A stretch of DNA of 64,000 nucleotides from assembly GCA_963739455.1 (NCBI GenBank), contig CAVUAK010000003.1:352001-416000 (forward strand), given 5' to 3'. The notes below the pieces were generated by a model. It saw only the letters and a list, made by a program, of their open reading frames with translations, did not search any database and was not told the DNA's origin. The position numbers and the translations under genes are program-made. Below are positions 25,440 to 45,245 of the stretch, in pieces. The stretch comes from an uncultured Gemmatimonadales bacterium. Lineage in GTDB: Bacteria > Gemmatimonadota > Gemmatimonadetes > Gemmatimonadales > GWC2-71-9. How positions within the stretch are numbered: position 1 is the stretch's first letter; every line of letters starts with the position of its first letter.

Positions 25440-25847
25440 CTACCGGCGCGCGGGAGGGAGGGCGGGGCGAAACTTGTAGCCGTACACGATGACGCCGTCT
25501 TCACTGTCCTCGCGCACCCGGCGGGTTACCATCTCCACCCGCAGGCCGATGGCGACGTCGTCGTGGCCCACGTCGGTCAATTGTGCCGCAATGAGGGGAC
25601 CCTCGTCCAGGCGCACGAGTGCCACCGGATACGGCGCGAACTCCTCGTGCCCCGCCGGGGGGTGGTACACGAAGGAATAGGAGTAGACCTCGCCCCCGCC
25701 GCAGAACCGGTGCGGTCGCATCGACGAGACCCCGCACTCCGTGCACACGGAGCGCGGTGGGAACATCCGATGGTCGCACGCCGTGCACTGTACGCCCTCG
25801 AGGAGGTATCGCTGCGCCTGCTGGCGCCAGTTGTGCGGGGCGCTCAT
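25440..25847 (-). CDS. DUF35 Zn-ribbon/OB-fold scaffold protein
   Basis: CTAC...FPPR.VCTEC, GEVYSY, PY.VALVRLDEG, YGYKFRP; coupled to the thiolase. Confidence 0.9.
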   Translation of the reverse strand: MSAPHNWRQQAQRYLLEGVQCTACDHRMFPPRSVCTECGVSSMRPHRFCGGGEVYSYSFVYHPPAGHEEFAPYPVALVRLDEGPLIAAQLTDVGHDDVAIGLRVEMVTRRVREDSEDGVIVYGYKFRPALPPARR

Positions 25848-27004
25848 GCCATCGCCTCGAGGATGGTCGTCACCACCGTCGCACCGCTGCCCCCGATGTT
25901 CTGTGTCATGCCGAGGGTTGCGCCGGGTACCTGGTTCACTCCCGCCTCGCCGCGCAGTTGCAGGACAGCCTCCACCAGCTGGTACATCCCGGTGGCGCCA
26001 ACCGGGTGCCCTCGGGCCTTGAGGCCACCCATCGTGGTGATGGGGATGCTTCCCTTGAGCCCGATCTCGCCGTCCAGGCCAAGCCGCACGCCCTCGCCTC
26101 TCACGGCAAAGCCCGACGCCTCGAGTGACAGCACCGACATGATCGTGAATGCGTCGTGCAGCTCGAAGAAGTCGATGTCCGCCGGCTTCACCCCGGCCTG
26201 TTCGTAGGCCCGGGCCGCACTCGTCGCGGCACCGCGCAACTCGAGGATGTCGCGCCGGTCATGAAGGGCAATCGTGTCGGTGCCGATTGCCGATGCTCGT
26301 ACCCGCACCGCCCGGCGGCCCATCGCGCGCGCCGTCGTCTCGCTGGTGAGGATGATTGCGGCTGCTCCATCGCACACCGGTGAACTGTCCAGCAGGCTCA
26401 CCGGGTCAGCGATCATCTTGGCGCGGCTGAAGTCGTCGGCGCTGATGGTGAAGGGGAACATCGCGTGATCGTTGCCCACTGCGTTCTGATGCGCATTGAT
26501 GCAGAAGGGAGCGAACTGCTCTCGAGTCACCTGGTGCTCGTGCATGTACCGGCGCATGAGGAGCGCGTTGAGCGCCACGAAGGAAAGCCCCTGCCGCGCC
26601 TCGTAGTCGCCGTCAGCCGCCATGGCGAGCGAGGCCGTCACCTCGCTTCCCGGGCGATCCGTCATTTTCTCGACACCGACCACCGCCACGACATCTGCCG
26701 CACCGCTGGCAATTGCCATGCATCCGAGCCGGAGCGCCGCGGCCCCCGATCCGCAAGCCGCCTCGACACGCACCGCCTCGATACCCTGCAGCCCTGCGAA
26801 GTCGGCGATGAGCGCGCCGAGATGCTCCTGCCCGGTCAGCTCACCCGCCATCATGTTGCCGACGAACAGGCTGGTGACCCGGGGGGAACCCGCGTCATGA
26901 ATCGCGGCCAGCAGTGCCTCGACCGCCAGGTCGCGGAGCGAGCGATCCCAGTGCTCGCCTACGGCCGTCTGGCCTGCCCCGATTATCGCGACGCCCGGGT
27001 TCAT
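25844..27004 (-). CDS. acetyl-CoA acetyltransferase, archaeal/SCP2-type thiolase
   Basis: VEAACGSG catalytic Cys, [34 protein letters not shown]. Confidence 0.9.
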
Positions 27005-28059
27005 TGGGCGAGCTGCCGGCGGAAGCGGGTGTACGTCGCGTAGTCGATTGGGACACGCCGCTCGATGTACTGGCGCGTCGTGGCCGCGGCATACTGTCGC
27101 TCGGTGATCCGTTCGGTGACGCGGAAGCTGAATGCGTCGCTGCCGGCGCCGCTCCCAAACGAGACGGCGAGGATGCGCTCACCCGGGGTGGCCTGGTCGA
27201 GGATCGCCGTGAGCCCGAGCATCGTCGCACCGGCGTACGTGTTCCCGATATCGTTACTGAGGAGACCGCGCGAGACCTGTTCCTTCGTGAAGCCGAGGTC
27301 GGTCGCCGCCTTGGTCGGGAACTTCTTGTTGGGCTGGTGCAGGACCACATGCGCGTAGTCGCGCGCCGTAGTGCCCAGTGCCCCAAACAGTTCCTCGGCG
27401 GCATGGGCCACGTGCTTGAAGTACCCTGGCTCGCCGGTGAAGCGACTGCCGTGTTGCGGATACCGTTCATGCTGCCGGCGCCAGAAGTCGGGTGTGTCGG
27501 TCACGAACGAGACCGAACCCTCGAAGACCGCGACCGATTCTTCAGCCGGTCCCACGATGATCGCCGCCCCGCCCGCCCCCGCCGTGTACTCCAGGGCATC
27601 ACCGGGTCGCGCTTGCGCGATGTCCATCCCGATCGCGAGCGCATAGTCGGACATGCCGGAGCCGGTCAGCGCGATGGCGGCCTGGAGTGCCTCGGTTCCT
27701 GCCTTGCACGCGAACTGCCAGTCGGCCGCCAGCGTGTACTCCGACACGCCAAGTGCCTCGGCCACGATCGTGCCCGTGGGCTTCACGGCGTAGGGGTGGC
27801 TCTCGCTTCCCACCCACACCGCACCGATGAGGGACGGATCGATCCCGGCGCGACGCACTGCGTTGCGGCCAGCCTCGATGGACATCGTCGCCACATCCTC
27901 GTCCAGCCCCGGCACGGACTTCTCCCGGATCGGGAGCGCCGCCTCGCCACCGTCCCAGATGCGCCCCACCTCGCTCGCCGGGAGGCGATAGCGCGGCACA
28001 TAGGCGCCGTAGCCGGCGATGCCGACTTCACGTGCTGGCTTCATCAGGTGTGATTGCAT
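27001..28059 (-). CDS. hydroxymethylglutaryl-CoA synthase, archaeal type
   Basis: [75 protein letters not shown]. Confidence 0.9.
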
Positions 28060-28211
28060 CGTGATGGGCTGGTCCGGTCCAGGGGAAACCGGCAGCGTGT
28101 TGCGGGCCTCCAACAATGAGAACCACAGTTCCCCTGTTGGACGCTCGAAACCACTGCTCCGGCCCCTGACATGGCAGGCACCATGCCATGTTGGGGCGGA
28201 GGCTCGGACGG

Positions 28212-31200
28212 TTATGCGCTGCGGCGGACCTCGTCGGAGACGAGGGGCTCGACCAGCGACCGGCGCAGGAACGCTGACCGCGTGGCGGCGATGAGCGCGG
28301 GCGCATTCCTCGGCGCAACCCGCCGGAACATCCCACGAACAGCCTCCCACTCGACCAGCAGTGTCCTGGCGCGGGGGCTGGCCGTCTTTTCCTCGTGGGC
28401 ATGGATCAGTCGGTGCAGCAGCTGCTCGTCCTCCTCCTCGAGCGTCTCGAGCGCCACCATGTCGCTATTGACCCGGGAGTGGAACGTGCCCGCCTCGTCC
28501 AGTACGTAGGCCAGGCCGTTCGACATGCCCGCCCCGAAATTCCGGCCGGCCCGTCCCAGCACCACCACGATCCCAGCCGTCATGTATTCGCAGCAGTGAT
28601 TGCCGGCGCCCTCGATGACCGCAGTCGCCCCCGAGTTGCGCACGGCAAAGCGATCGCCTGCCTGGCCCGCGGCGAACAGCAAGCCGCCGGTGGCACCGTA
28701 GAGCGCGGTGTTGCCGAGCACGAGATGCTGCTGCGACTGACTGGCGTACGCCGCACGCCGAAAGTGCCGGATCGTGATCTCTCCGCCCGACAGACCCTTG
28801 CCCACGTAGTCATTCGCCTCGCCCTCGAGTTCGAGGTGCACGCCCTTGCTGAGGAATGCCCCGAAGCTCTGTCCCGCGCTGCCGGTGAAGCGCAGCCGGA
28901 TCCGCCCCTCAGGCAGTCCCGTATCACCGAACCGCCGCGCGATCTCGCCCGACACCCCTGCGCCAACCGCCAGGTGATGGTTCCGGATCGGGTAGTGACT
29001 GGAGAAGGGAAGCCCGCTCTCCAGGTAGGGTGCCAGTTCCTCGATGATCTCGCGATCGAGTGACACGAGACCCGGGCGGTTGTTCCGTGCCTCGGTGCGC
29101 TTCCGCGTCACCGTCGTGGCGCCCTTGGGTGGTGCCAGCAGCATCGACAGGTCCAGCAGCTGAGCCCGCGGCACGTCGGGATGGTCTACTCGCACCAGCA
29201 AGTCGTTGCGCCCGATCACTTCCTCGAGCGTGCGCGCACCGAGCGAGGCGAGGATTGCGCGCACCTCCTCGGCCACCAGAGTGAAATACGCGATGACCTG
29301 CTCCGGCGTGCCCTTGAACTTGGCCCGCAAGTCATCGCGCTGGGTCGCAATCCCCGTGGGGCAGGTGTTGCTGTGACACTGCCGCGCCATGGCACAGCCA
29401 AGTGCCACGAGCGGCGCGGTGCCGAAGCCGTATGACTCGGCGCCCAGGAGCGCGGCGATCACCACATCACGGCCGGTCTTGAGGCCGCCATCGGTGCGCA
29501 CCTCGATGCGATGACGCAGGCCGTTCCGCACCAGCGTCGCCTGGGTTTCCGCCAGGCCCAGCTCCCAGGGCGAGCCCGCATGCTTGATCGACGAGAGCGG
29601 CGAGGCGCCGGTCCCGCCGTTGTGCCCCGCGATGAGCACATAGTCCGCGTACGCCTTGCACACGCCCGCCGCGACCGTACCGACACCGGACTCCGCCACC
29701 AGCTTCACGCCGACACGCGCGCGCGGGTTCACCGTCTTGAGGTCGGTGATGAGCTGCGCCAGGTCCTCGATGGAGTAGATGTCGTGATGCGGCGGTGGCG
29801 AGATGAGCGGAATACCCGGCACTGCATGGCGCAGCCGCGCGATCAGTTCCGTCACCTTGTGCCCCGGCAGTTGCCCGCCCTCACCCGGCTTGGCGCCCTG
29901 CACGATCTTGATCTCGAGTTCCTCTGCGCGAACGAGGTACTCGGTGGTGACACCAAACCGGGCCGACGCCACCTGCTTGATCCGGTTGTCGAGCCGGTCG
30001 CCGTCGGTGGGTGTCCGGAACAGCGCGGGGTCCTCGCCGCCTTCGCCGGAATTCGACTTCGCATTCATCCGGTTCATGGCGATCGTGAGCGCCGCGTGCG
30101 CCTCGGGCGACAGGGCACCGAGCGACATCGCTGATGACACGAAGCGTCGGCGGATCGATTCCATCGGTTCGACTTCGGCCATGGGCACCGGCGTGCCCGG
30201 CCGGATGCCCAGCAGGTCACGCGGACCGGCGGGACGCCGCCCGCGATGCTTCGCAAGGAAGCCGTCGTACGCCTCGTCGTTGGTCGTGCCGCCCTTCACC
30301 GCCTGCTGCAGTGCCACGACCACCGGCGGGGCCCAGCCGTGGTCCTCGCCTTCCTTGCGGAAACGAACCCGGCCAAAGTCGGTCAGCCCTGATCCATCGA
30401 GCGCCGCCTCGTACGCGGCGGCGTGACGCGCCACCACGTCTTCGGCGAGTTCCGCGAAGCCGACGCCGCCTATCGGTGAGGTCGTGCCCGAGAACGCGGC
30501 GTCGATCACCTCGCGGCCCAGGCCCAGTGCCTCGAAGATCTGCGCCCCGCAATAGGACGAGAGCGTCGAGATGCCCATCTTCGAGAGGATCTTGAGCAAC
30601 CCCTTCTCGGCGGCGGTGCGATAGCGCTCCACCGCCTCAGCCGGGGTGGGTCGCGGGGTATCGGTCTGCTTCTTCGGCGCCTCCGCCTCGCCGAACATCG
30701 ACTCGACGCTGGCCAGTGCCAGCCATGGGTGCACCGCTTCGGCGCCGTAGCCGATCAGGCACGCGAAGTGGTGGATGTCGAACGCGTCGCCCGTCTCGGC
30801 GACGAGGCCGACCCGCGCACGCAGGCCGGTGCGCACCAGTTCCTGCCGGACGGCACCAATCGCGAGCAGCATCGGGATCGGCGCGCGCGTGGGACCGGCC
30901 GCGCGGTCGCTGACCACCAGGAGCTTGGCGCCGGCGCGCACCGCGCGTACGGCCTGGCTCGCCAGCAGCTCGAGCGCGGGCCGGAAGCCCTCGATGCCGT
31001 CGGCCGGATCCCAGATGGCATCGATGATCTCGGTGGGGAAGCCCCGCACGTTGAGCAGGCCCGCCATCTCCGTCGCCAGCAGCACCGGGTGCTCCACCCG
31101 CAGCATGCCGGCGGCATTCGGGCGCTCGACCAGCGGCGACCCGCGCCGGCCCAGGTGCATGCGGAGCGACATGACCATCGCCTCGCGGAGGGGATCGATC

Positions 31201-32829
31201 GGCGGGTTGGTGACCTGCGCGAAGCGCTGCCGGAAATAGGCGTACGCGCTCTGCGGGGTGCGCGCGAGCGGCGGAATGGGCGTGTCGTCGCCCATGCTCC
31301 ACACGGCGTCCACGCTGGTGGTGGCCATCGGCTCGAGCACCAGGCGCAGGTCCTCGAAGCCATAGCCGAACAGCCGCTGCCGCACGACGAGTTCATCGCC
31401 GGCGGGAGCGGGCAGTGTGCGGATCGGGTCAGGCACCAGCACCGCCATGTAGCGCCGCACCCACGTCTCGTACGGGTGGCGTCCCGCCACCTCGCGCTTC
31501 GCGTCGAGGTTGCGGATCACCTGGCCACGCTCGAGGTCGGCCACGAGCACCTCGCCCGGGCCCACCTTGCCGGTCTCGACGATCTCTTCCGGCTCGAGGT
31601 CGACCAGGCCCACCTCCGATCCAACCACGACGAGGCCGTCGTGCCGGATCTTGTAGCGGCAGGGCCGGAGGCCGTTGCGGTCCACCGATGCGCCGGCGAA
31701 TCGTCCGTCGGTGTAGGCGAGCGCCGCCGGACCGTCCCACGGTTCGTGCAGGATCTGGTGGTACTCGTAGAAGGCGCGCACCGCAGGGTCGACGTCGGGA
31801 TATTTCTCCCACGCCTGCGGGATCATCATCATCGTCGTGTGCACCGGGTCGCGCCCGGAACGCACGAACAGCTCCATGGCATTGTCCAGGCTCGCGGAGT
31901 CGCTGCCATGCGGCCAGACGACATCCTTGAGCCTGTCCTCGCGCCCTTCCCAGAGCGGTGACTTGAGCATCGGGGTCCGCATCGTCATCGCGTTGCGGTT
32001 GCCCCAGAGGGTGTTGATCTCCCCGTTGTGCGCCAGGAGGCGGAACGGCTGCGCCAGGGGCCAGCTCGGGAGGGTGTTCGTGGAGTAGCGCTGGTGGAAA
32101 ACGGCGACCGCGCTCTCGAACTCGGGGAAACGGAAGTCAGGATAGAACGCCGGCAGCTGGGTGCCCTGCAGCAGCGCCTTGTACACGATGGTTCGACAGG
32201 AGAACGACGGCACGTAGAAGCCGGGCAGGCCCAGCGCTTCGGCCCGCTGCTCCATGGCGCGCCGGGCCAGGAAGAGCGCACGCTCCCACCCGTCATCGTC
32301 GGCGACGCGCTCGGGACGCCCCACCAGCACCTGGCGGATTACCGGCTGGCTCTGGCGCGCGCCTCCACCGAGCGCAGCTGGGGTTGACCGGTACGTCGCG
32401 CCAGCCGATCAGGGGCAGGCCGTCTTCCTCCAGCACCTTTTCCACTACCTGCACCGACTGGGCAAGCGCCTCGGGATCGACCGGAAGGAAGAACACGCCG
32501 ACCGCGAAGGGACGCCCCGCCTCGAGACGCAGCCCGAGGCGGTAGGCATCGCGGTAGAAGAGTCGGTGCGGAACCTGGGTCAGCAGCCCGGCGCCATCTC
32601 CCGAGTTGTCGGTGGAGGCGGCGCCGCGGTGGGCCACGCGGGCCACCGCTTCGAGCGCCATCTGCACCACTTCGTGTGAGCGGGCTCCCGATGACTGGGC
32701 CACGAACCCGACGCCACAGGCGTCATGTTCGCGGAAGGCGTCGAGGCCGGCGGTGTCCGCGACGCGCGAGTGGGCCCCGCGATCGGGGTCGGGAGTGGCC
32801 GAGCGGATCCGCTGCCCTGGTGCGGCCAT
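28212..32829 (-). CDS. gltB: glutamate synthase large subunit (frameshift near 32370)
   Basis: [10 protein letters not shown]-terminal nucleophile, [70 protein letters not shown]. Confidence 0.95.
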
Positions 32830-32876
32830 GCTTCCTCCTGGTGGTGACGCCAGGCTGGCCGGAGAGGCCGGGCCTG

Positions 32877-32908
32877 AAAACGAAAACCCCGCTCGCCTGG
32901 GAGCGGGG
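32877..32908 (-). terminator. attenuator terminator in the gltB leader
   Basis: Minus strand CCCCGCTC-CCAGGC-GAGCGGGG-TTTTCGTTTT, about 50 nt upstream of the gltB ATG and in its sense. Confidence 0.8.
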
Positions 32909-32934
32909 TCGGGGGCGCGCTACTGCACGCTCAA

Positions 32935-33009
32935 CTACCCGGCCGCTCCCAACGAGCGCGGAGAATTGACGAGAATAGCCGTGGCGACCTGAAGTCGTGC
33001 ATTCAACAT
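32935..33009 (-). CDS. putative gltB leader peptide MLNARLQVATAILVNSPRSLGAAG
   Basis: 24-codon ORF rich in AT-rich codons atypical of the window; its 3' part is complementary to the downstream terminator. Confidence 0.55.
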   Translation of the reverse strand: MLNARLQVATAILVNSPRSLGAAG

Positions 33010-33104
33010 GACTGCATACTTATACTGTGGGATGCATGGGTCAAGTGGCGCGCGCCCGCAGCACCACGTTGTGGGGGGCGGTTTCGCCGGGGCAAATGCC
33101 CCAC

Positions 33105-33134
33105 TTGACAGGCGCCCCGGCGCTTGGGTACCCT
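33105..33134 (+). promoter_or_regulatory. putative sigma70 promoter of the leu/ilv operon
   Basis: TTGACA-18 nt-TACCCT upstream of the leader peptide. Confidence 0.45.
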
Positions 33135-33222
33135 CCCAGTCCGGCGCAAGGGTATTTTTATGCAGCCGACGCCGCCCGGCACCCGCGGGTGGCCCAGAAC
33201 CCGATCGCAGTACACGGAAACA

Positions 33223-33330
33223 ATGAATCTGAACGGCTTGCTTCTGGTCCTCCTTGGTGTCCTTCCGGTCCTTCTTATTGGACGGGATGGATTCCGCGGC
33301 GTGCCGGTGGCGAGCAAGATGAGTCGATAG
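33223..33330 (+). CDS. leu/ilv operon leader peptide MNLNGLLLVLLGVLPVLLIGRDGFRGVPVASKMSR
   Basis: 35 codons with 9 Leu (5 CTT), 5 Val and 1 Ile, directly upstream of a terminator and leuA. Confidence 0.85.
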   Translation: MNLNGLLLVLLGVLPVLLIGRDGFRGVPVASKMSR

Positions 33331-33354
33331 CAGGACTCGCTTAGACCAGCAGGG

Positions 33355-33390
33355 GCGCCGCGGACCAACGGGTTCGCGGCGCTTTCGTTT
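33355..33390 (+). terminator. leu/ilv attenuator terminator
   Basis: GCGCCGCGGACC-AACG-GGTTCGCGGCGC-TTTCGTTT; TCCGCGGCGT in the leader ORF can pair with the 5' arm (antiterminator). Confidence 0.85.
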
Positions 33391-33411
33391 CCGGCCCCAG
33401 GGAGAATCGGC

Positions 33412-34966
33412 ATGACGCGCAGGATCATCGTTTTCGACACGACGCTCAGGGATGGCGAACAGGCGCCCGGCAACAGCCTCACCGTGGACGAGAAGGTGCG
33501 CCTCGCCCGGCAGCTCGAGGTGCTCGGGGTGGACGTGATCGAGGCCGGCTTCCCGGCGTCCTCCGAAACCGACTTCCGCAGCGTGCAGGAGATCGCGGCC
33601 CAGGTGCGGCGTCCCGTGATCGCCGCGCTGGCCCGGTGTACCGAACGGGACATCGACCTGGCCGGCGAGGCCATCCGCGGCGCCGAGCGGGGCCGGATTC
33701 ACGTGTTCCTCTCCACCTCCGACCTGCACCTCAAGGCCAAGCTGCGCATGACCCGCGAGGAGGCGGTGGAGAAGATCCGCGAAAGCGTGCGTCGCGCGAA
33801 GTCCTTCACCGACGATGTCGAGTGGAGTGCCGAGGATGCCAGTCGCACCGGGCTCGACTTCCTCTGCCAGTGTGTCGAGGTCGCCATCAGTGAGGGTGCC
33901 ACCACGGTCAACCTGCCGGACACGGTGGGCTATGCCACGCCCGAGGAATACGGCGCGATGTTCCGCGAGGTGCGTCGCCGCGTGCCGTCCAGCGCGGGCA
34001 TCGTCCTGAGCGCCCACTGCCACGATGACCTGGGCCTCGCCGTGGCCAACTCGCTCGCGGCCATCAGTGCGGGCGCGGGACAGGTCGAGTGCACCATCAA
34101 CGGCATCGGCGAGCGGGCAGGCAACGCCGCCCTGGAAGAGATCGTCATGGCGGGTCGGGTGCGCGCATCGCAGTACGCCTTCGAGACCGGCATCGAGTCG
34201 CGCGAACTCTATCGCACCAGCCAGATGCTCTCGCACCTCACCGGCAACTTTCCCCAGCCGAACAAGGCCATCGTCGGCCGGAATGCCTTCGCCCACGAGG
34301 CGGGCATCCACCAGCACGGCGTCCTGCAGAACGGGCGCACCTACGAGATCATCGAGCCCGACACCGTCGGCATCGCCCGCTCGTCCCTGGTGCTCGGCCG
34401 TCACTCCGGCCGCCACGCCCTGGCGCGGCGCTTCCAGGAGCTGGGTTACGAAATCGAGGACGAGCAGCTCGGCAACATCTACAAGGAGTTCCTCCAGCTC
34501 GCCGAGCGGAAGCGGCAGATCCTCGATGAAGACCTGCTGGCGCTCCTGCACGAGAGCTTCCACGATGCGCCGGAGGAGTTCCAGCTGAAGCGAGCTACGC
34601 GTCGTGTGCGGCAGCGGCACGGCCACCGCGGACGTGACGCTTGCCGGTCCGTACGTCGGGGCACGCAGCGCGACCGGTACCGGGGACGGTCCGATCGCCG
34701 CCGCCTTCGCCGCTGTCAGCGAGATCGTGGGAAAGACGGTCGAGGTGGAGAGCCTCAATCTCCGTTCGGTGACCCCCGGCCGGGACAGCGTGGGCCAGGT
34801 CTTCCTCCAGGTTCGCGTTGATGGTCGCACGTTCAGCGCCCACAGCGCGTCCACCGACATCGTCGAGGCCAGTGCCCGCGCCATGGTGAACGCACTCAAC
34901 AAGTCGCGCCACGCCGAGTCGCTCGAGGCGGCGGCGCTGGACAGCAACAGCTACTGGGGAGTCTGA
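33412..34966 (+). CDS. leuA: 2-isopropylmalate synthase (frameshift near 34595)
   Basis: [39 protein letters not shown]-terminal regulatory domain G.GPI.A / TDIVEASA.A in the shifted frame. Confidence 0.95.
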
Positions 34967-34971
34967 CCGCC

Positions 34972-36660
34972 TTGTCCGAGATGCTCACCGGCGCCCAGCT
35001 CATGTGCCGCATCCTCCTCGAGGAGGGTGTGGACGTGCTGTTCGGGTATCCCGGCGGCGCGATCATGCCGTTCTACCACGCGCTGCCCGAGTATCCCGGG
35101 CTGCGCCACATCCTCGTGCGGCATGAGCAGGCGGCGGCGCACGCCGCCGACGGCTATGCGCGCGCCTCGGGTCAGGCCGGCGTGTGCGTGGCTACCTCCG
35201 GACCGGGCGCCACCAACCTGGTCACCGGCCTGGCGACGGCGTACATGGACAACTCGCCGGTCGTGGCCATCACCGGGCAGGTCTCCCGCCCCATGATGGG
35301 TCGCGATGCCTTCCAGGAAACCGACATCATCGGCGTGACGCTTCCCATCACCAAGTGGAGCGTGCTGGTCGAGGACATCACCACGCTCGCCGATACCATG
35401 CGCCGCGCATTCGCCATCGCGCGCGGCGGGCGGCCCGGACCCGTGCTGGTGGACGTGCCCAAGGACGTGCAGAACCAGCGCATCGAGTACACCGCCTCGC
35501 GTCGTCGCTCCGGCGCAGCGTGCCGCCCCGGTGGTCGATGCCGGCGCGCTGGCCGATGCGGCGCGGCTCATCGGCGGCGCCGAGCGGCCGCTGATCCTTG
35601 CGGGACACGGCATCATCCTGGGCAACGCCAGCGAGGACCTGCGCATCTTCGCCGAGCACACCGGCATTCCCGTCATCACCACCCTGCTCGGCATCAGCGC
35701 CTTCCCCGAGGATCACCCGCTGCACCTCGGCATGCCGGGCATGCACGGTGAGGTGCACGTCAATCGCGCCATCCAGCATGCCGACCTGCTGATCGCGGTG
35801 GGTATGCGCTTCGACGATCGCGTGACCGGGAACACCGCGGGCTTCGCCCGTCACGCGAAGATTGTCCACATCGAGCTCGATCCCACCGAGATCGGCAAGA
35901 ACGTGCCTGTCGAGGTGCCGCTGGTGGGCGATGCCGGGCCCATCCTCTCCGCGCTGACGCGCGCGCTGGCGCCGCGCTCCTGCACCGCCTGGTGGGAGGA
36001 GATCGACAGTTCGCGCCGGCCGCCGCACGAGCAGTTCCGCGGCGACATCGCACCCGAGGCGATTCTCCGGGCGCATGCACGATGCGAGCGGCGGGAAGTG
36101 CAGCATCGTGGCCGACGTGGGCCAGCACCAGATGTGGGTGGCCAAGCTCTTTCCCGTACCGCCGCCTCAACACCCACTTCTCGTCCGGTGGCCTCGGCGC
36201 CATGGGCTTCGCCGTGCCGGCGGCCATCGGCGTGCACCTGGCGCGCCCCGACGAGCCGGTGTGGGCCATCTCGGGCGACGGTGGCTTCCAGATGAACATG
36301 CAGGAAATGGCGACGATGGTGCAGGAAGGCCTGCCCATCAAGCTCGCGATCTTCAACAACGGGTATCTCGGCATGGTGCGGCAGTGGCAGCAGTTCTTCC
36401 ACGGCCGCCGCTACTCGGCGACGCCGATCTGGAGTCCCGACTACGTGAAGCTGGCCGAGGCGTACGGCATCGCCGGCTACCGGGTCGAGCAGGGCTCACA
36501 GATCGCCGGTGCGGTCGCGGCGGCACTCCGCGATCCCGGCCCCGCGCTCATCGAGTTCGTGATCGAGCAGGAGGCGAACGTCTACCCGATGATCCCGCCC
36601 GGTGCCTCGCTCTCGGAGGTCATCGAGACGGCGCCCGCGCCGGAGCCGGCGTCGGCATGA
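34972..36660 (+). CDS. ilvB: acetolactate synthase large subunit (frameshifts near 35510, 36070, 36155)
   Basis: [67 protein letters not shown]. Confidence 0.93.
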
Positions 36661-43553: not shown

Positions 43554-44051
43554 GGCGCCGGGCTGGAGTAAGGAAGCGGTGGATTCTTACGGAAGATCCC
43601 GCCGGGGTATGGGGCGCGGCAAGCTCAACGGCCCGAGGGAGCTGCCTTGCCCGAAGGCCGCGCCGGGCAAGAATTGCAGAAGCCGCCGTTTTTCATGTGC
43701 AGAATGTATAATTTTGCATATGTTTGACCAAATGAAGTTCAAATGACAGCCAATTGTGCATTAAAGTATTGACAAAGCTGCATAGATATGCGAGCTTTCG
43801 GAAGCCATGAACATGCTTGATCGCCTCGCCGGTAACGCCGGCCCCAATCGAAACGCACAGCCGCGCCGAAATACCGGTGCGGCGATCGTTGTGTGCCCCG
43901 AGCGGAGCGGCTGAGGCAGCCCAGAACCAGCACGTGTCCTCACGCCCCCGCGCATACCCGTGCAGGGGCGTTTGCATATTTGCCCACCCGCTGAGCTCCC
44001 GCCGCTCGGCGGGCGGGATCACCCGAGGCGAGGAGTCAAGAAGACAACGCC

Positions 44052-45245
44052 ATGGCCCGACGCTTCCGACCAATGCTTCTCGCGCTGACGCTCGCAGGCT
44101 CGTTCACCGGCACCGCTGTGGCGCAGGAGGTCGCCAAGCCTGACAGCGCCAAGTCCGATTCCGTCATCGCCATACCGGGGGAAGCGACGGCTGGTCTCAA
44201 GCTTGGGTCGCTGCCGTTCTACCTCGGCGGCTTTGTCACGTCATCCTTCACCCAGTCGTTCGCCCCGACCGGCAACATCCTGGTGGGCCGGTTCTACAAC
44301 CGGTACCAGTCGCAGTTCATGCTGAATGCGGCGGAGCTGAGCGTCACCAAGCCGGTTGACACCAGCAAGCTCGACGCGGGCGCTCGAGTGGAGTTGCTGT
44401 TCGGCCAGGATGCGGCGGTGACCCAGTCGCAGGGACTGTCGATCGGACCGAACGGCGACCTTACCGAGGGTTACGTCACGCTGAACGTGCCCACCGGCGG
44501 CGCGGATCACTGGGTCCAGTTCAAGGTCGGCAAGATGTGGACGATCATGGGCTACGAGGTCATCGCCGATGTGCTCGATCCCAACGCCGACGTCGGCAAC
44601 CAGTTCGTGTACCTCGAGAACTTCACCAACACCGGCCTGGGTGTCGACTTCAAGTTCGGGCCGAAGGTGGATGCCCAGCTGCGGGTCATGAACGGCTGGG
44701 ACGTGGTGGTGGACAACAACAGCGCCCTCTCCTTCATGGGCCGGGTCGGCCTGACGCCGACGCCGGCAGTGACGATTGGCCTGCTCGGCTACGTGGGCCC
44801 GGAGCAGCCCGACAACAACGACAACCTGCGATATGGCTTCGAGGGGCTGGGCACGTTCAAGGTCGGCGCGAAGACCACGATCGTGGCGCAGTTCGACTAC
44901 GGCGAGGAGCAGGGGCTGCTGGCGAATCCCGACGAGAACGCCAAGTGGTGGGGCGGTGGTCTCTGGTTCGTCCAGGACATCTCGCCGGTCTTCAACCTGG
45001 GCCTGCGGGGCGACTACGTCGATGACAAGAACGGCGTTCGTACGTCCGGGGTGCTGGGCTATCAGGTGGCGGATGCCCGGAAGTTTGGCAGCGTCACCGC
45101 CACCCTCAACATTCACGCGTTCCCCAAGGCCGTCATCCGTCCGGAGTTCCGGCTCGACTTCTCCAGCCTCGATGACTATGGCGAGCTCGACGACCCGACG
45201 AGCACGCAGCCGTCGATCGGCGTCACGGTGACCTACCAGTTCTGA
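44052..45245 (+). CDS. outer membrane beta-barrel porin (DUF1597/BBP2-like)
   Basis: Signal peptide, alternating beta-strand pattern, GK..T..GYEVI, NGWD...DNN, RPEFRLD, C-terminal YQF. Confidence 0.75.
   Translation: MARRFRPMLLALTLAGSFTGTAVAQEVAKPDSAKSDSVIAIPGEATAGLKLGSLPFYLGGFVTSSFTQSFAPTGNILVGRFYNRYQSQFMLNAAELSVTKPVDTSKLDAGARVELLFGQDAAVTQSQGLSIGPNGDLTEGYVTLNVPTGGADHWVQFKVGKMWTIMGYEVIADVLDPNADVGNQFVYLENFTNTGLGVDFKFGPKVDAQLRVMNGWDVVVDNNSALSFMGRVGLTPTPAVTIGLLGYVGPEQPDNNDNLRYGFEGLGTFKVGAKTTIVAQFDYGEEQGLLANPDENAKWWGGGLWFVQDISPVFNLGLRGDYVDDKNGVRTSGVLGYQVADARKFGSVTATLNIHAFPKAVIRPEFRLDFSSLDDYGELDDPTSTQPSIGVTVTYQF

Follow-up and report, generated by a model that had tools for sequence, protein, structure and literature searches.

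The gltB locus

The window analysed here is a 64,000-nucleotide stretch of a contig from an uncultured Gemmatimonadales bacterium. Its minus strand carries gltB, coding for the large subunit of glutamate synthase (28212-32829; PF00310, PF04898, PF01645 and PF01493, with NF008730 over cut-off), whose ATG at 32829 is preceded by the Shine-Dalgarno sequence AGGAGG (32839-32834). The gene is found in two frames (32829-32293 and 32330-28212), split by a base that an intact relative does not have; since several other genes of the same assembly are likewise in two frames, this split is probably an assembly error. No gltD was found over cut-off in the host genome, which is 84% complete. Directly after gltB (25440-28176, minus strand) come HMG-CoA synthase-like, thiolase and ChsH2/DUF35-type OB-fold genes, which we take to be an archaeal-type trio.

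In the other direction lies the operon leuA-ilvB-ilvH-ilvC-leuC-leuD-leuB, and gltB is divergent from this leuA-ilv operon in many genera. The operon is preceded by a Leu/Val-rich leader ORF (33223-33330, plus strand) that served as internal control; together with its terminator it forms a textbook Leu/Val/Ile leader (33223-33385), conserved in 24 loci. Next to it, at 33151-33164, is an ARG-box-like site. The gltB leader described below is not a local duplicate of this leuA attenuator, as their hairpin sequences differ.

A leader ORF and two competing helices

The original prediction had placed, just before the gltB ribosome-binding site, a minus-strand ORF of 24 codons (33009-32935) followed by a GC stem with a U-tract (32908-32877), and both are present in front of gltB. 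The upstream ORF (uORF) is translated as MLNARLQVATAILVNSPRSLGAAG, followed by a stop codon. Its control region corresponds approximately to codons 7-16 (QVATAILVNS) and includes the announced Ile-Leu-Val run, encoded by ATT-CTC-GTC at codons 12-14, with AAT at codon 15. The codons singled out as atypical are indeed rare within their own families in the host genome (TTG 0.04, CGA 0.07, CTT 0.06, GCT 0.05, ATT 0.12, AAT 0.19, TCT 0.02 and GCA 0.10). An open frame of 670 codons runs antisense to leuA and ends with the uORF; it is not a real gene, as relatives have from 2 to more than 155 open codons upstream.

An intrinsic terminator, made of a 10-pair stem (32910-32885) and a U-tract extending to 32877, is the sole terminator-like site between 32500 and 34200. 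Since shuffled sequences give 0.7 such sites per region by chance, a single site is not significant by itself, and it is conservation that carries the argument. The hairpin has a folding energy of -19.5 kcal/mol, which none of 200 shuffles equalled. The complementarity announced between the end of the uORF and the terminator is longer than described: 32957-32938 pairs with 32913-32891, and the entire leader reaches its lowest folding energy with this antiterminator helix (-64.3 kcal/mol, z -3.1, equalled by 2 of 200 shuffles). The 5' strand of the antiterminator (32938-32957) lies inside the end of the uORF, with the core GGGAGCGG at 32950-32943. The switching strand (32891-32913) can pair either with this uORF end or, via 32910-32901, with the 3' arm of the terminator. 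A small hairpin in the antiterminator loop (32915-32930) varies between genera, and a short element, CGGCCTCTCCGGCC, 3' of the terminator (32857-32870) is kept in several of them.

Conservation of the leader among relatives

Of 41 relatives, 18 were found to contain the gltB N-terminus, as were 61 of 301 genomes of the class; 74 upstream regions were compared, locus L019 being dropped because it had no upstream DNA. The ORF, the antiterminator strand, the terminator and the U-tract were found together in 42 of the 43 family loci, from 15 genera (ORFs were hand-picked from the output of the caller, and by eye for L026, L036 and L043, which it missed). The only family locus without leader, L034, has retained ARG-box-like sites. 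The uORF is 22 to 29 codons long in 41 of the 42 leaders, and its stop codon lies 23-36 nt upstream of the terminator core. Records bearing this type of gltB leader are titled Gemmatimonadales.

Both helices covary. Over 40 aligned leaders (2 near-duplicates omitted), 4 of the 8 pairs of the antiterminator core and 5 of the 10 terminator pairs were changed on both sides, counts that are inflated by the relatedness of the sequences; 90% and 95% of cells, respectively, were paired, compared to 28-64% in slid registers used as control. With one leader per genus, cognate strand duplexes reached -28.2 kcal/mol versus -26.1 kcal/mol for permuted ones (mean p 0.004, maximum 0.028). Locus by locus, the cognate duplex was better than the mean of other genera in 20 of 42 cases and better than shuffles (p≤0.05) in 24 of 42, a modest result explained by the core being nearly invariant and G-rich.

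Among the other 31 loci of the class, 5 have leaders of a similar kind whose hairpin sequences differ (L017, L018, L054, L055 and L061), and two further ones have a terminator and an ambiguous ORF. In a sample of Acidobacteriota, the best 30 of 110 gltB hits included 2 clear leaders on a related scaffold (L206 and L207) and 1 doubtful one; the gltB of L206/L207 adjoins the Gemmatimonadales gltB clade with a support of 0.92, in a tree of N-terminal fragments with a midpoint root. A distant gltB (L137, 42% identity) likewise has the family scaffold in front of it, suggesting that at this locus the leader has been kept and the gene has changed. At L054, from another family, gltB is preceded by a Thr/Ala-rich leader of 66 codons and a terminator, and the L154/L206 and L229 leaders are Thr/Lys-rich, so that other lineages may read other codons. 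In L042-L047 (genus g25), gltB apparently starts with TTG/CTG directly 3' of the U-tract, and a GGAG is found within the 3' arm of the terminator, so that the hairpin may also mask the ribosome-binding site there.

Folding with a ribosome on the leader

The ribosome was modelled as masking RNA up to an assumed 12 nt from the A site (one leader of the data set, L015, was mis-anchored). When it was placed at the stop codon, the terminator folded in 41 of 42 leaders. With the A site 10-12 codons before the stop, the nascent antiterminator folded in 40 of 42. Against the full terminator at equilibrium, the antiterminator won in only 25-26 of 42 leaders, and kinetics must therefore matter. The predicted switching point lies 8-12 codons before the stop, which in the leader of the window falls between codons 15 (AAT) and 17. 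Untranslated RNA folded as terminator in 31 of 42 leaders, and as antiterminator in the leader of the window. No conserved upstream helix that could act as a 1:2 pause or anti-antiterminator hairpin was found in the aligned leaders, and the untranslated fold varies between loci. The leader thus has a short ORF, an intrinsic terminator (by structure) and a mutually exclusive antiterminator that a ribosome could cover, as classical attenuators do.

Searching for the RNA motif without the ORF

A pattern made of the three pairing strands only, the ORF being excluded, matched at least 119 loci, of which at least 70 were upstream of gltB, a share that is partly due to construction, as the pattern derives from the family and some genomes are repeated. 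ORFs were defined as having 14-45 codons and ending 9-27 nt past the motif, and 3 loci with too little DNA were dropped. Among the matches listed, 60 of 67 gltB loci had a uORF starting with ATG (shuffles 8.6, maximum 16), and all 67 had an ORF with any start (shuffles 15.8, maximum 23). As background, 67 of 303 terminator-like sites of the host genome were retained by a short-open-frame filter that left out the gltB leader itself. The GGGAGCG motif is read in all three frames (37, 2 and 28 times among the matches listed), which indicates that it is kept as RNA.

The matches listed also included 49 loci away from gltB, 47 of which were scanned. Among these, 28 precede genes for IlvD (16), KARI (2), HMGL-like proteins (4), amino-acid kinase (aspartokinase-like, 5) or aminotransferase IV (1), and most of them carry plain Leu/Ile/Val or Thr leaders. 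The scaffold is therefore one used by ordinary attenuators. It was also found with an LLHN-type leader upstream of a HAD hydrolase gene in Gemmatimonadales (L097, L159 and L160, with L124 and L202 recognized by their leader), and with a conserved 30-codon ORF upstream of a gene with a sigma-54 activator domain (L098 and L143).

Predicted promoter and ARG-box-like site

A -35-like hexamer, TTGACC (33039-33044, minus strand), marks the predicted gltB promoter. In 37 of 42 leaders such a hexamer lies 30-40 nt upstream of the uORF start, which is preceded by an SD-like motif in 2 of 42; taken together, these two features suggest that translation of the uORF is probably leaderless. The -10 hexamer of the gltB leader is weak, and a strict promoter scan reported no promoter there. 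A few low-depth RNA contigs of relatives span the leader (the best runs contained 5-9% of words, as contigs, which show neither ends, strand nor level).

The original prediction contrasted its leader with known control of gltB by protein regulators (Lrp/Nac, GltC/TnrA). This contrast was incomplete, as a candidate ARG-box-like palindrome (33013-33026, minus strand) overlaps the predicted promoter at its -10-like hexamer (33021-33016). A match with at most 3 mismatches to an ARG-box consensus was found in 32 of 42 leaders, compared to 0.5 in shuffles (maximum 4). At gltB, a single good box is accompanied by an ATGCA half-site lying 20 nt upstream. A similar pattern was found at four places of the host genome, namely the start of the argG operon, gltB, leuA and the porin/ilvD region. 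Two ArgR homologues are encoded in this genome (G000:C1:1536827 and C1:1216051), so that, as expected of an ArgR regulon, both the regulator and a motif at an arg operon are present. One homologue lies at the end of an arg operon, the other after an amidohydrolase-like gene. According to excerpts of the respective reports, ArgR represses gltBDF in E. coli (PMC4381063), and ArgR boxes are found at leuA and amtB in S. coelicolor (PMC3293853). Given the overlap with the predicted promoter, an ArgR layer and an attenuator layer probably both act on gltB.

Codon content of the leader ORFs

The peptide itself is not conserved: compared to 7 close relatives, which are not independent, the uORF of the window shows 19 synonymous and 30 non-synonymous differences. 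CGA5, CTT6 and AAT15 are nevertheless invariant in all 8 close leaders. Some codons are strongly biased to the frame of the uORF. Among the matches listed, AAT was counted 59 times in frame versus 0 and 3 in the two other frames, ATT 46 versus 3 and 0, CTT 40 versus 3 and 1, GTC 69 versus 6 and 1, and AAG 17 versus 1 and 0; GCC is frame-biased as well. The frame specificity of AAT implies that it reflects neither a DNA motif nor a mere A/T bias.

This bias was quantified again with genus weighting, over the ten codons of the control region. Relative to the genome, Asn reached 12.5% versus 2.5%, Lys 7.1 versus 2.6, Val 13.8 versus 8.2, Ile 6.9 versus 4.4, Leu 15.1 versus 10.3, Pro 8.5 versus 5.6 and Ala 16.7 versus 12.2. 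Asn is therefore the most enriched residue, 5-fold, with AAT enriched about 19-fold, and enrichment of Leu, Val and Ile is 1.5-1.7-fold. Asn is found within the control region of 33 of 42 leaders, and in 56 of 67 leaders of the scan among the matches listed; it is absent from this region in 9 of 42. The gltB leaders contain no homopolymeric run of control codons. Codons matching the product of the pathway are nearly absent, Glu representing 0-0.2% of the control region (Gln 0.8-1.8%), so that the leader resembles an attenuator in its working without being a strict member of the classical class.

The host genome encodes an AsnRS over cut-off, AsnB-type proteins and GatB, and no GlnRS was found in it. 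Formation of Asn-tRNA by GatCAB, by which the leader would read glutamine directly, was rejected because AsnRS is present, and the link to nitrogen would thus run through free asparagine. Gln codons are depleted, although GatB is present and GlnRS was not found.

Proposed mechanism and alternatives

We conclude that the gltB leader is very probably a ribosome-driven transcription attenuator as such. Conservation, covariation, frame-specific codons and geometry, all read from sequence, agree with the original prediction on this point. More precisely, we propose, with a probability of about 0.58, that it permits transcription into gltB under a shortage of charged tRNA for a small group of amino acids, namely Asn, Leu, Ile, Val and some related ones. 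Transcription would start at or beside the ATG of the uORF, without SD, from a promoter that is probably repressed by ArgR. A ribosome at codon 17 or later would cover GGGAGCGG, in which case computed folding predicts that the terminator forms, and transcription would end 48 nt upstream of gltB. With a ribosome held at codon 15 or before, the GGGAGCGG strand would remain free, the computed fold is the antiterminator, and RNA polymerase would read on. The hold-up itself would be caused by rare codons (AAT, ATT, CTT and CGA) and by GTC, GCC and AAG. The amino acids of the control codons get their nitrogen from glutamate or glutamine, so that running short of them together would indicate that glutamate supply is failing. 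The enzyme's own product would not be sensed, Glu codons being nearly absent.

As to the signal, two possibilities had been put forward originally, branched-chain amino acids or a general limitation in amino acids and nitrogen. The first would correspond to a branched-chain attenuator recruited to gltB, in which stalling at Leu, Ile and Val codons alone drives read-through and Asn is a filler. The enriched Leu, Val and Ile share the codons CTC, GTC, CTT and ATT with the leuA leader, from which gltB is often divergent, and the scaffold serves ilv/leu leaders elsewhere. M. tuberculosis ilvB1, according to excerpts of PMC13236596, needs only four such codons. Against it, Leu, Ile and Val make up only 36-41% of the gltB control region, and Asn tops the enrichment and is encoded by the rare AAT in 73% of cases in leaders compared to 19% in the genome. 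Dense runs are infrequent, only 8 of the 42 leaders reaching 7 or more Leu/Ile/Val codons out of 12 and the median being 5 of 12, compared to about 85% in leuA leaders (24 loci, which were however chosen by a richness filter). Five of the 42 leaders have at most 2 such codons, as in ARNANPVANA, and the neighbouring leuA attenuator has another hairpin sequence. We therefore hold the branched-chain-only signal to be unlikely, and the broader sensing of amino acids and nitrogen fits better. Provided that the leader is an attenuator, a multivalent sensor, mixing Asn and aliphatic residues, is the favoured and fairly likely design, as some gltB leaders are nearly devoid of branched-chain codons and others of Asn. 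Mixed control regions have been predicted to be less sensitive (excerpts of PMC1183508), and altering candidate control codons of S. coelicolor ilvB had no effect (excerpts of PMC1262725).

Slightly less credit goes to a general gauge of translation rate, in which rare codons act as a timer, and slow ribosomes or failed leaderless initiation lead to read-through whatever the amino acid. In its favour, many of the codons found enriched are just rare ones, the peptide drifts between leaders, and the leader of the window folds as antiterminator when untranslated. However, the rare codons used form a narrow set, and the common GTC, GCC and AAG are enriched too. Moreover, Phe, Tyr and Trp are absent from the control region, as is Glu, while Gly, Asp and Gln are depleted, and the terminator is the fold of the untranslated RNA in most leaders (31 of 42).

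Very improbable is a switch between the two helices operated by a riboswitch or an RNA-binding protein, the ORF being incidental. In favour of it, glutamate synthase genes are linked to glutamine riboswitches and to the gltD motif candidate (excerpts of PMC8632094), and conservation of the core is at the RNA level, whatever the frame. Against this, the 6 Rfam matches in 31000-36000 are all weak, below the gathering score and outside the leader core, no conserved aptamer-like sequence was found outside the three pairing strands in the aligned leaders, and the ORF and its frame-specific codons are far above chance. Least probable of all is a fixed terminator merely damping gltB or giving a small RNA, with regulation by ArgR alone, since, despite the ARG-box-like sites in 32 of 42 promoters and the boxes that L034 has without leader, it leaves the covarying antiterminator and a positioned ORF with biased codons unexplained.

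A second leader upstream of a porin gene

Elsewhere in the window, another leader ORF (43808-43915, plus strand) has a high content of Asn and Arg; together with a hairpin at about 43940-43972, it lies upstream of a BBP2 porin gene (44052-45245). It is divergent from ilvD, and several ARG-like boxes are present on the plus strand in 43700-43975. Of 19 porin loci inspected by eye, 6 have such a leader, which in L243 and L245 is built on the gltB-type scaffold; other porin loci follow amtB-like, glnK-like or gltB genes, as read from upstream sequence. The porin leader of the window did not show a switch in the fold test, and no leader with terminator was seen by eye at amtB and glnA of the host genome. 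It is possible that the porin leader belongs to the same regulon as the gltB leader.

On a speculative note, Asn codons might be a dedicated nitrogen gauge, by which a shortage of Asn-tRNA is read on leaderless mini-genes. In Gemmatimonadales, this gauge might coordinate a nitrogen 'ribulon' (gltB, the amtB/glnK-linked BBP2 porin, and perhaps more), replacing or standing beside protein nitrogen regulators. By the same conjecture, gltB attenuators would have arisen or spread more than once, given the two Acidobacteriota loci and two other gltB lineages.

Comparison with known systems

No leader-peptide attenuator of gltB was found in the literature searched, in which few subscription journals were in scope. 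The gene is absent from the main text of PMC2965389, PMC3766115, PMC1262725 and PMC5314783, whose supplementary lists could hold a candidate, and the legend of Extended Data Fig. 5 of PMC13236596 names no genes, so that the figure itself could hold one. What we describe is likely a known mechanism, attenuation, on a gene for which no published example was found.

Known amino-acid attenuators sense the product of their own pathway. The gltB leader is attached to a central enzyme of nitrogen assimilation, and appears to sense the amino acids that depend on it, chiefly Asn. If true, a ribosome on a mini-gene would be enough for bacteria to assess their nitrogen status, with no need of a dedicated sensor protein. 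More than 60 naturally occurring leaders are at hand for testing how mixed codons affect the response, and, for an order that is mostly uncultured, the leader gives a first entry point into the regulation of nitrogen metabolism.

Classical ribosome-mediated attenuators, as presented in excerpts of PMC1183508, control trp, his, leu, thr, ilvGMEDA, ilvBN, as well as pheA. Like them, the gltB leader has a short uORF with control codons upstream of the antiterminator strand, a mutually exclusive terminator with U-tract, and a preference for particular synonymous codons. Unlike them, its target is nitrogen assimilation, its control codons do not match the product (no Glu), its control region is mixed with Asn most enriched, no conserved 1:2 hairpin was found in it, and it is probably leaderless. 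M. tuberculosis ilvB1, in the excerpts of PMC13236596, is close to it by its design with two states, the antiterminator being masked when a ribosome sits at the stop codon, and by its few control codons. It differs in sensing branched-chain amino acids for its own pathway, as demonstrated by experiment, whereas the gltB leader is known from its sequence.

The leaders of the ilvD/ilvC/leuA/thrA type found here in Alphaproteobacteria and Fibrobacteria share with it the GGGAGCG / CGCTCC / GAGCG scaffold and the placement of the ORF, but carry plain Leu/Ile/Val or Thr runs. Mycobacterial polycysteine sORF attenuators, from excerpts of 10.1101/834739, also have a leaderless sensor ORF in first position and a possible multi-operon 'ribulon'; unlike the gltB leader, they govern access to the ribosome-binding site and sense one amino acid via a run. 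The glutamine (glnA) riboswitch and the gltD motif candidate also provide control at the RNA level before glutamate synthase genes, but are described, in excerpts of PMC8632094, as aptamer-type elements without sensor ORF. Finally, ARG-box-like sites at the gltB and leuA promoters recall the ArgR-controlled gltBDF of E. coli and leuA of S. coelicolor (excerpts of PMC4381063 and PMC3293853), with the difference that the candidate ARG-box-like site of gltB is combined with a leader attenuator.
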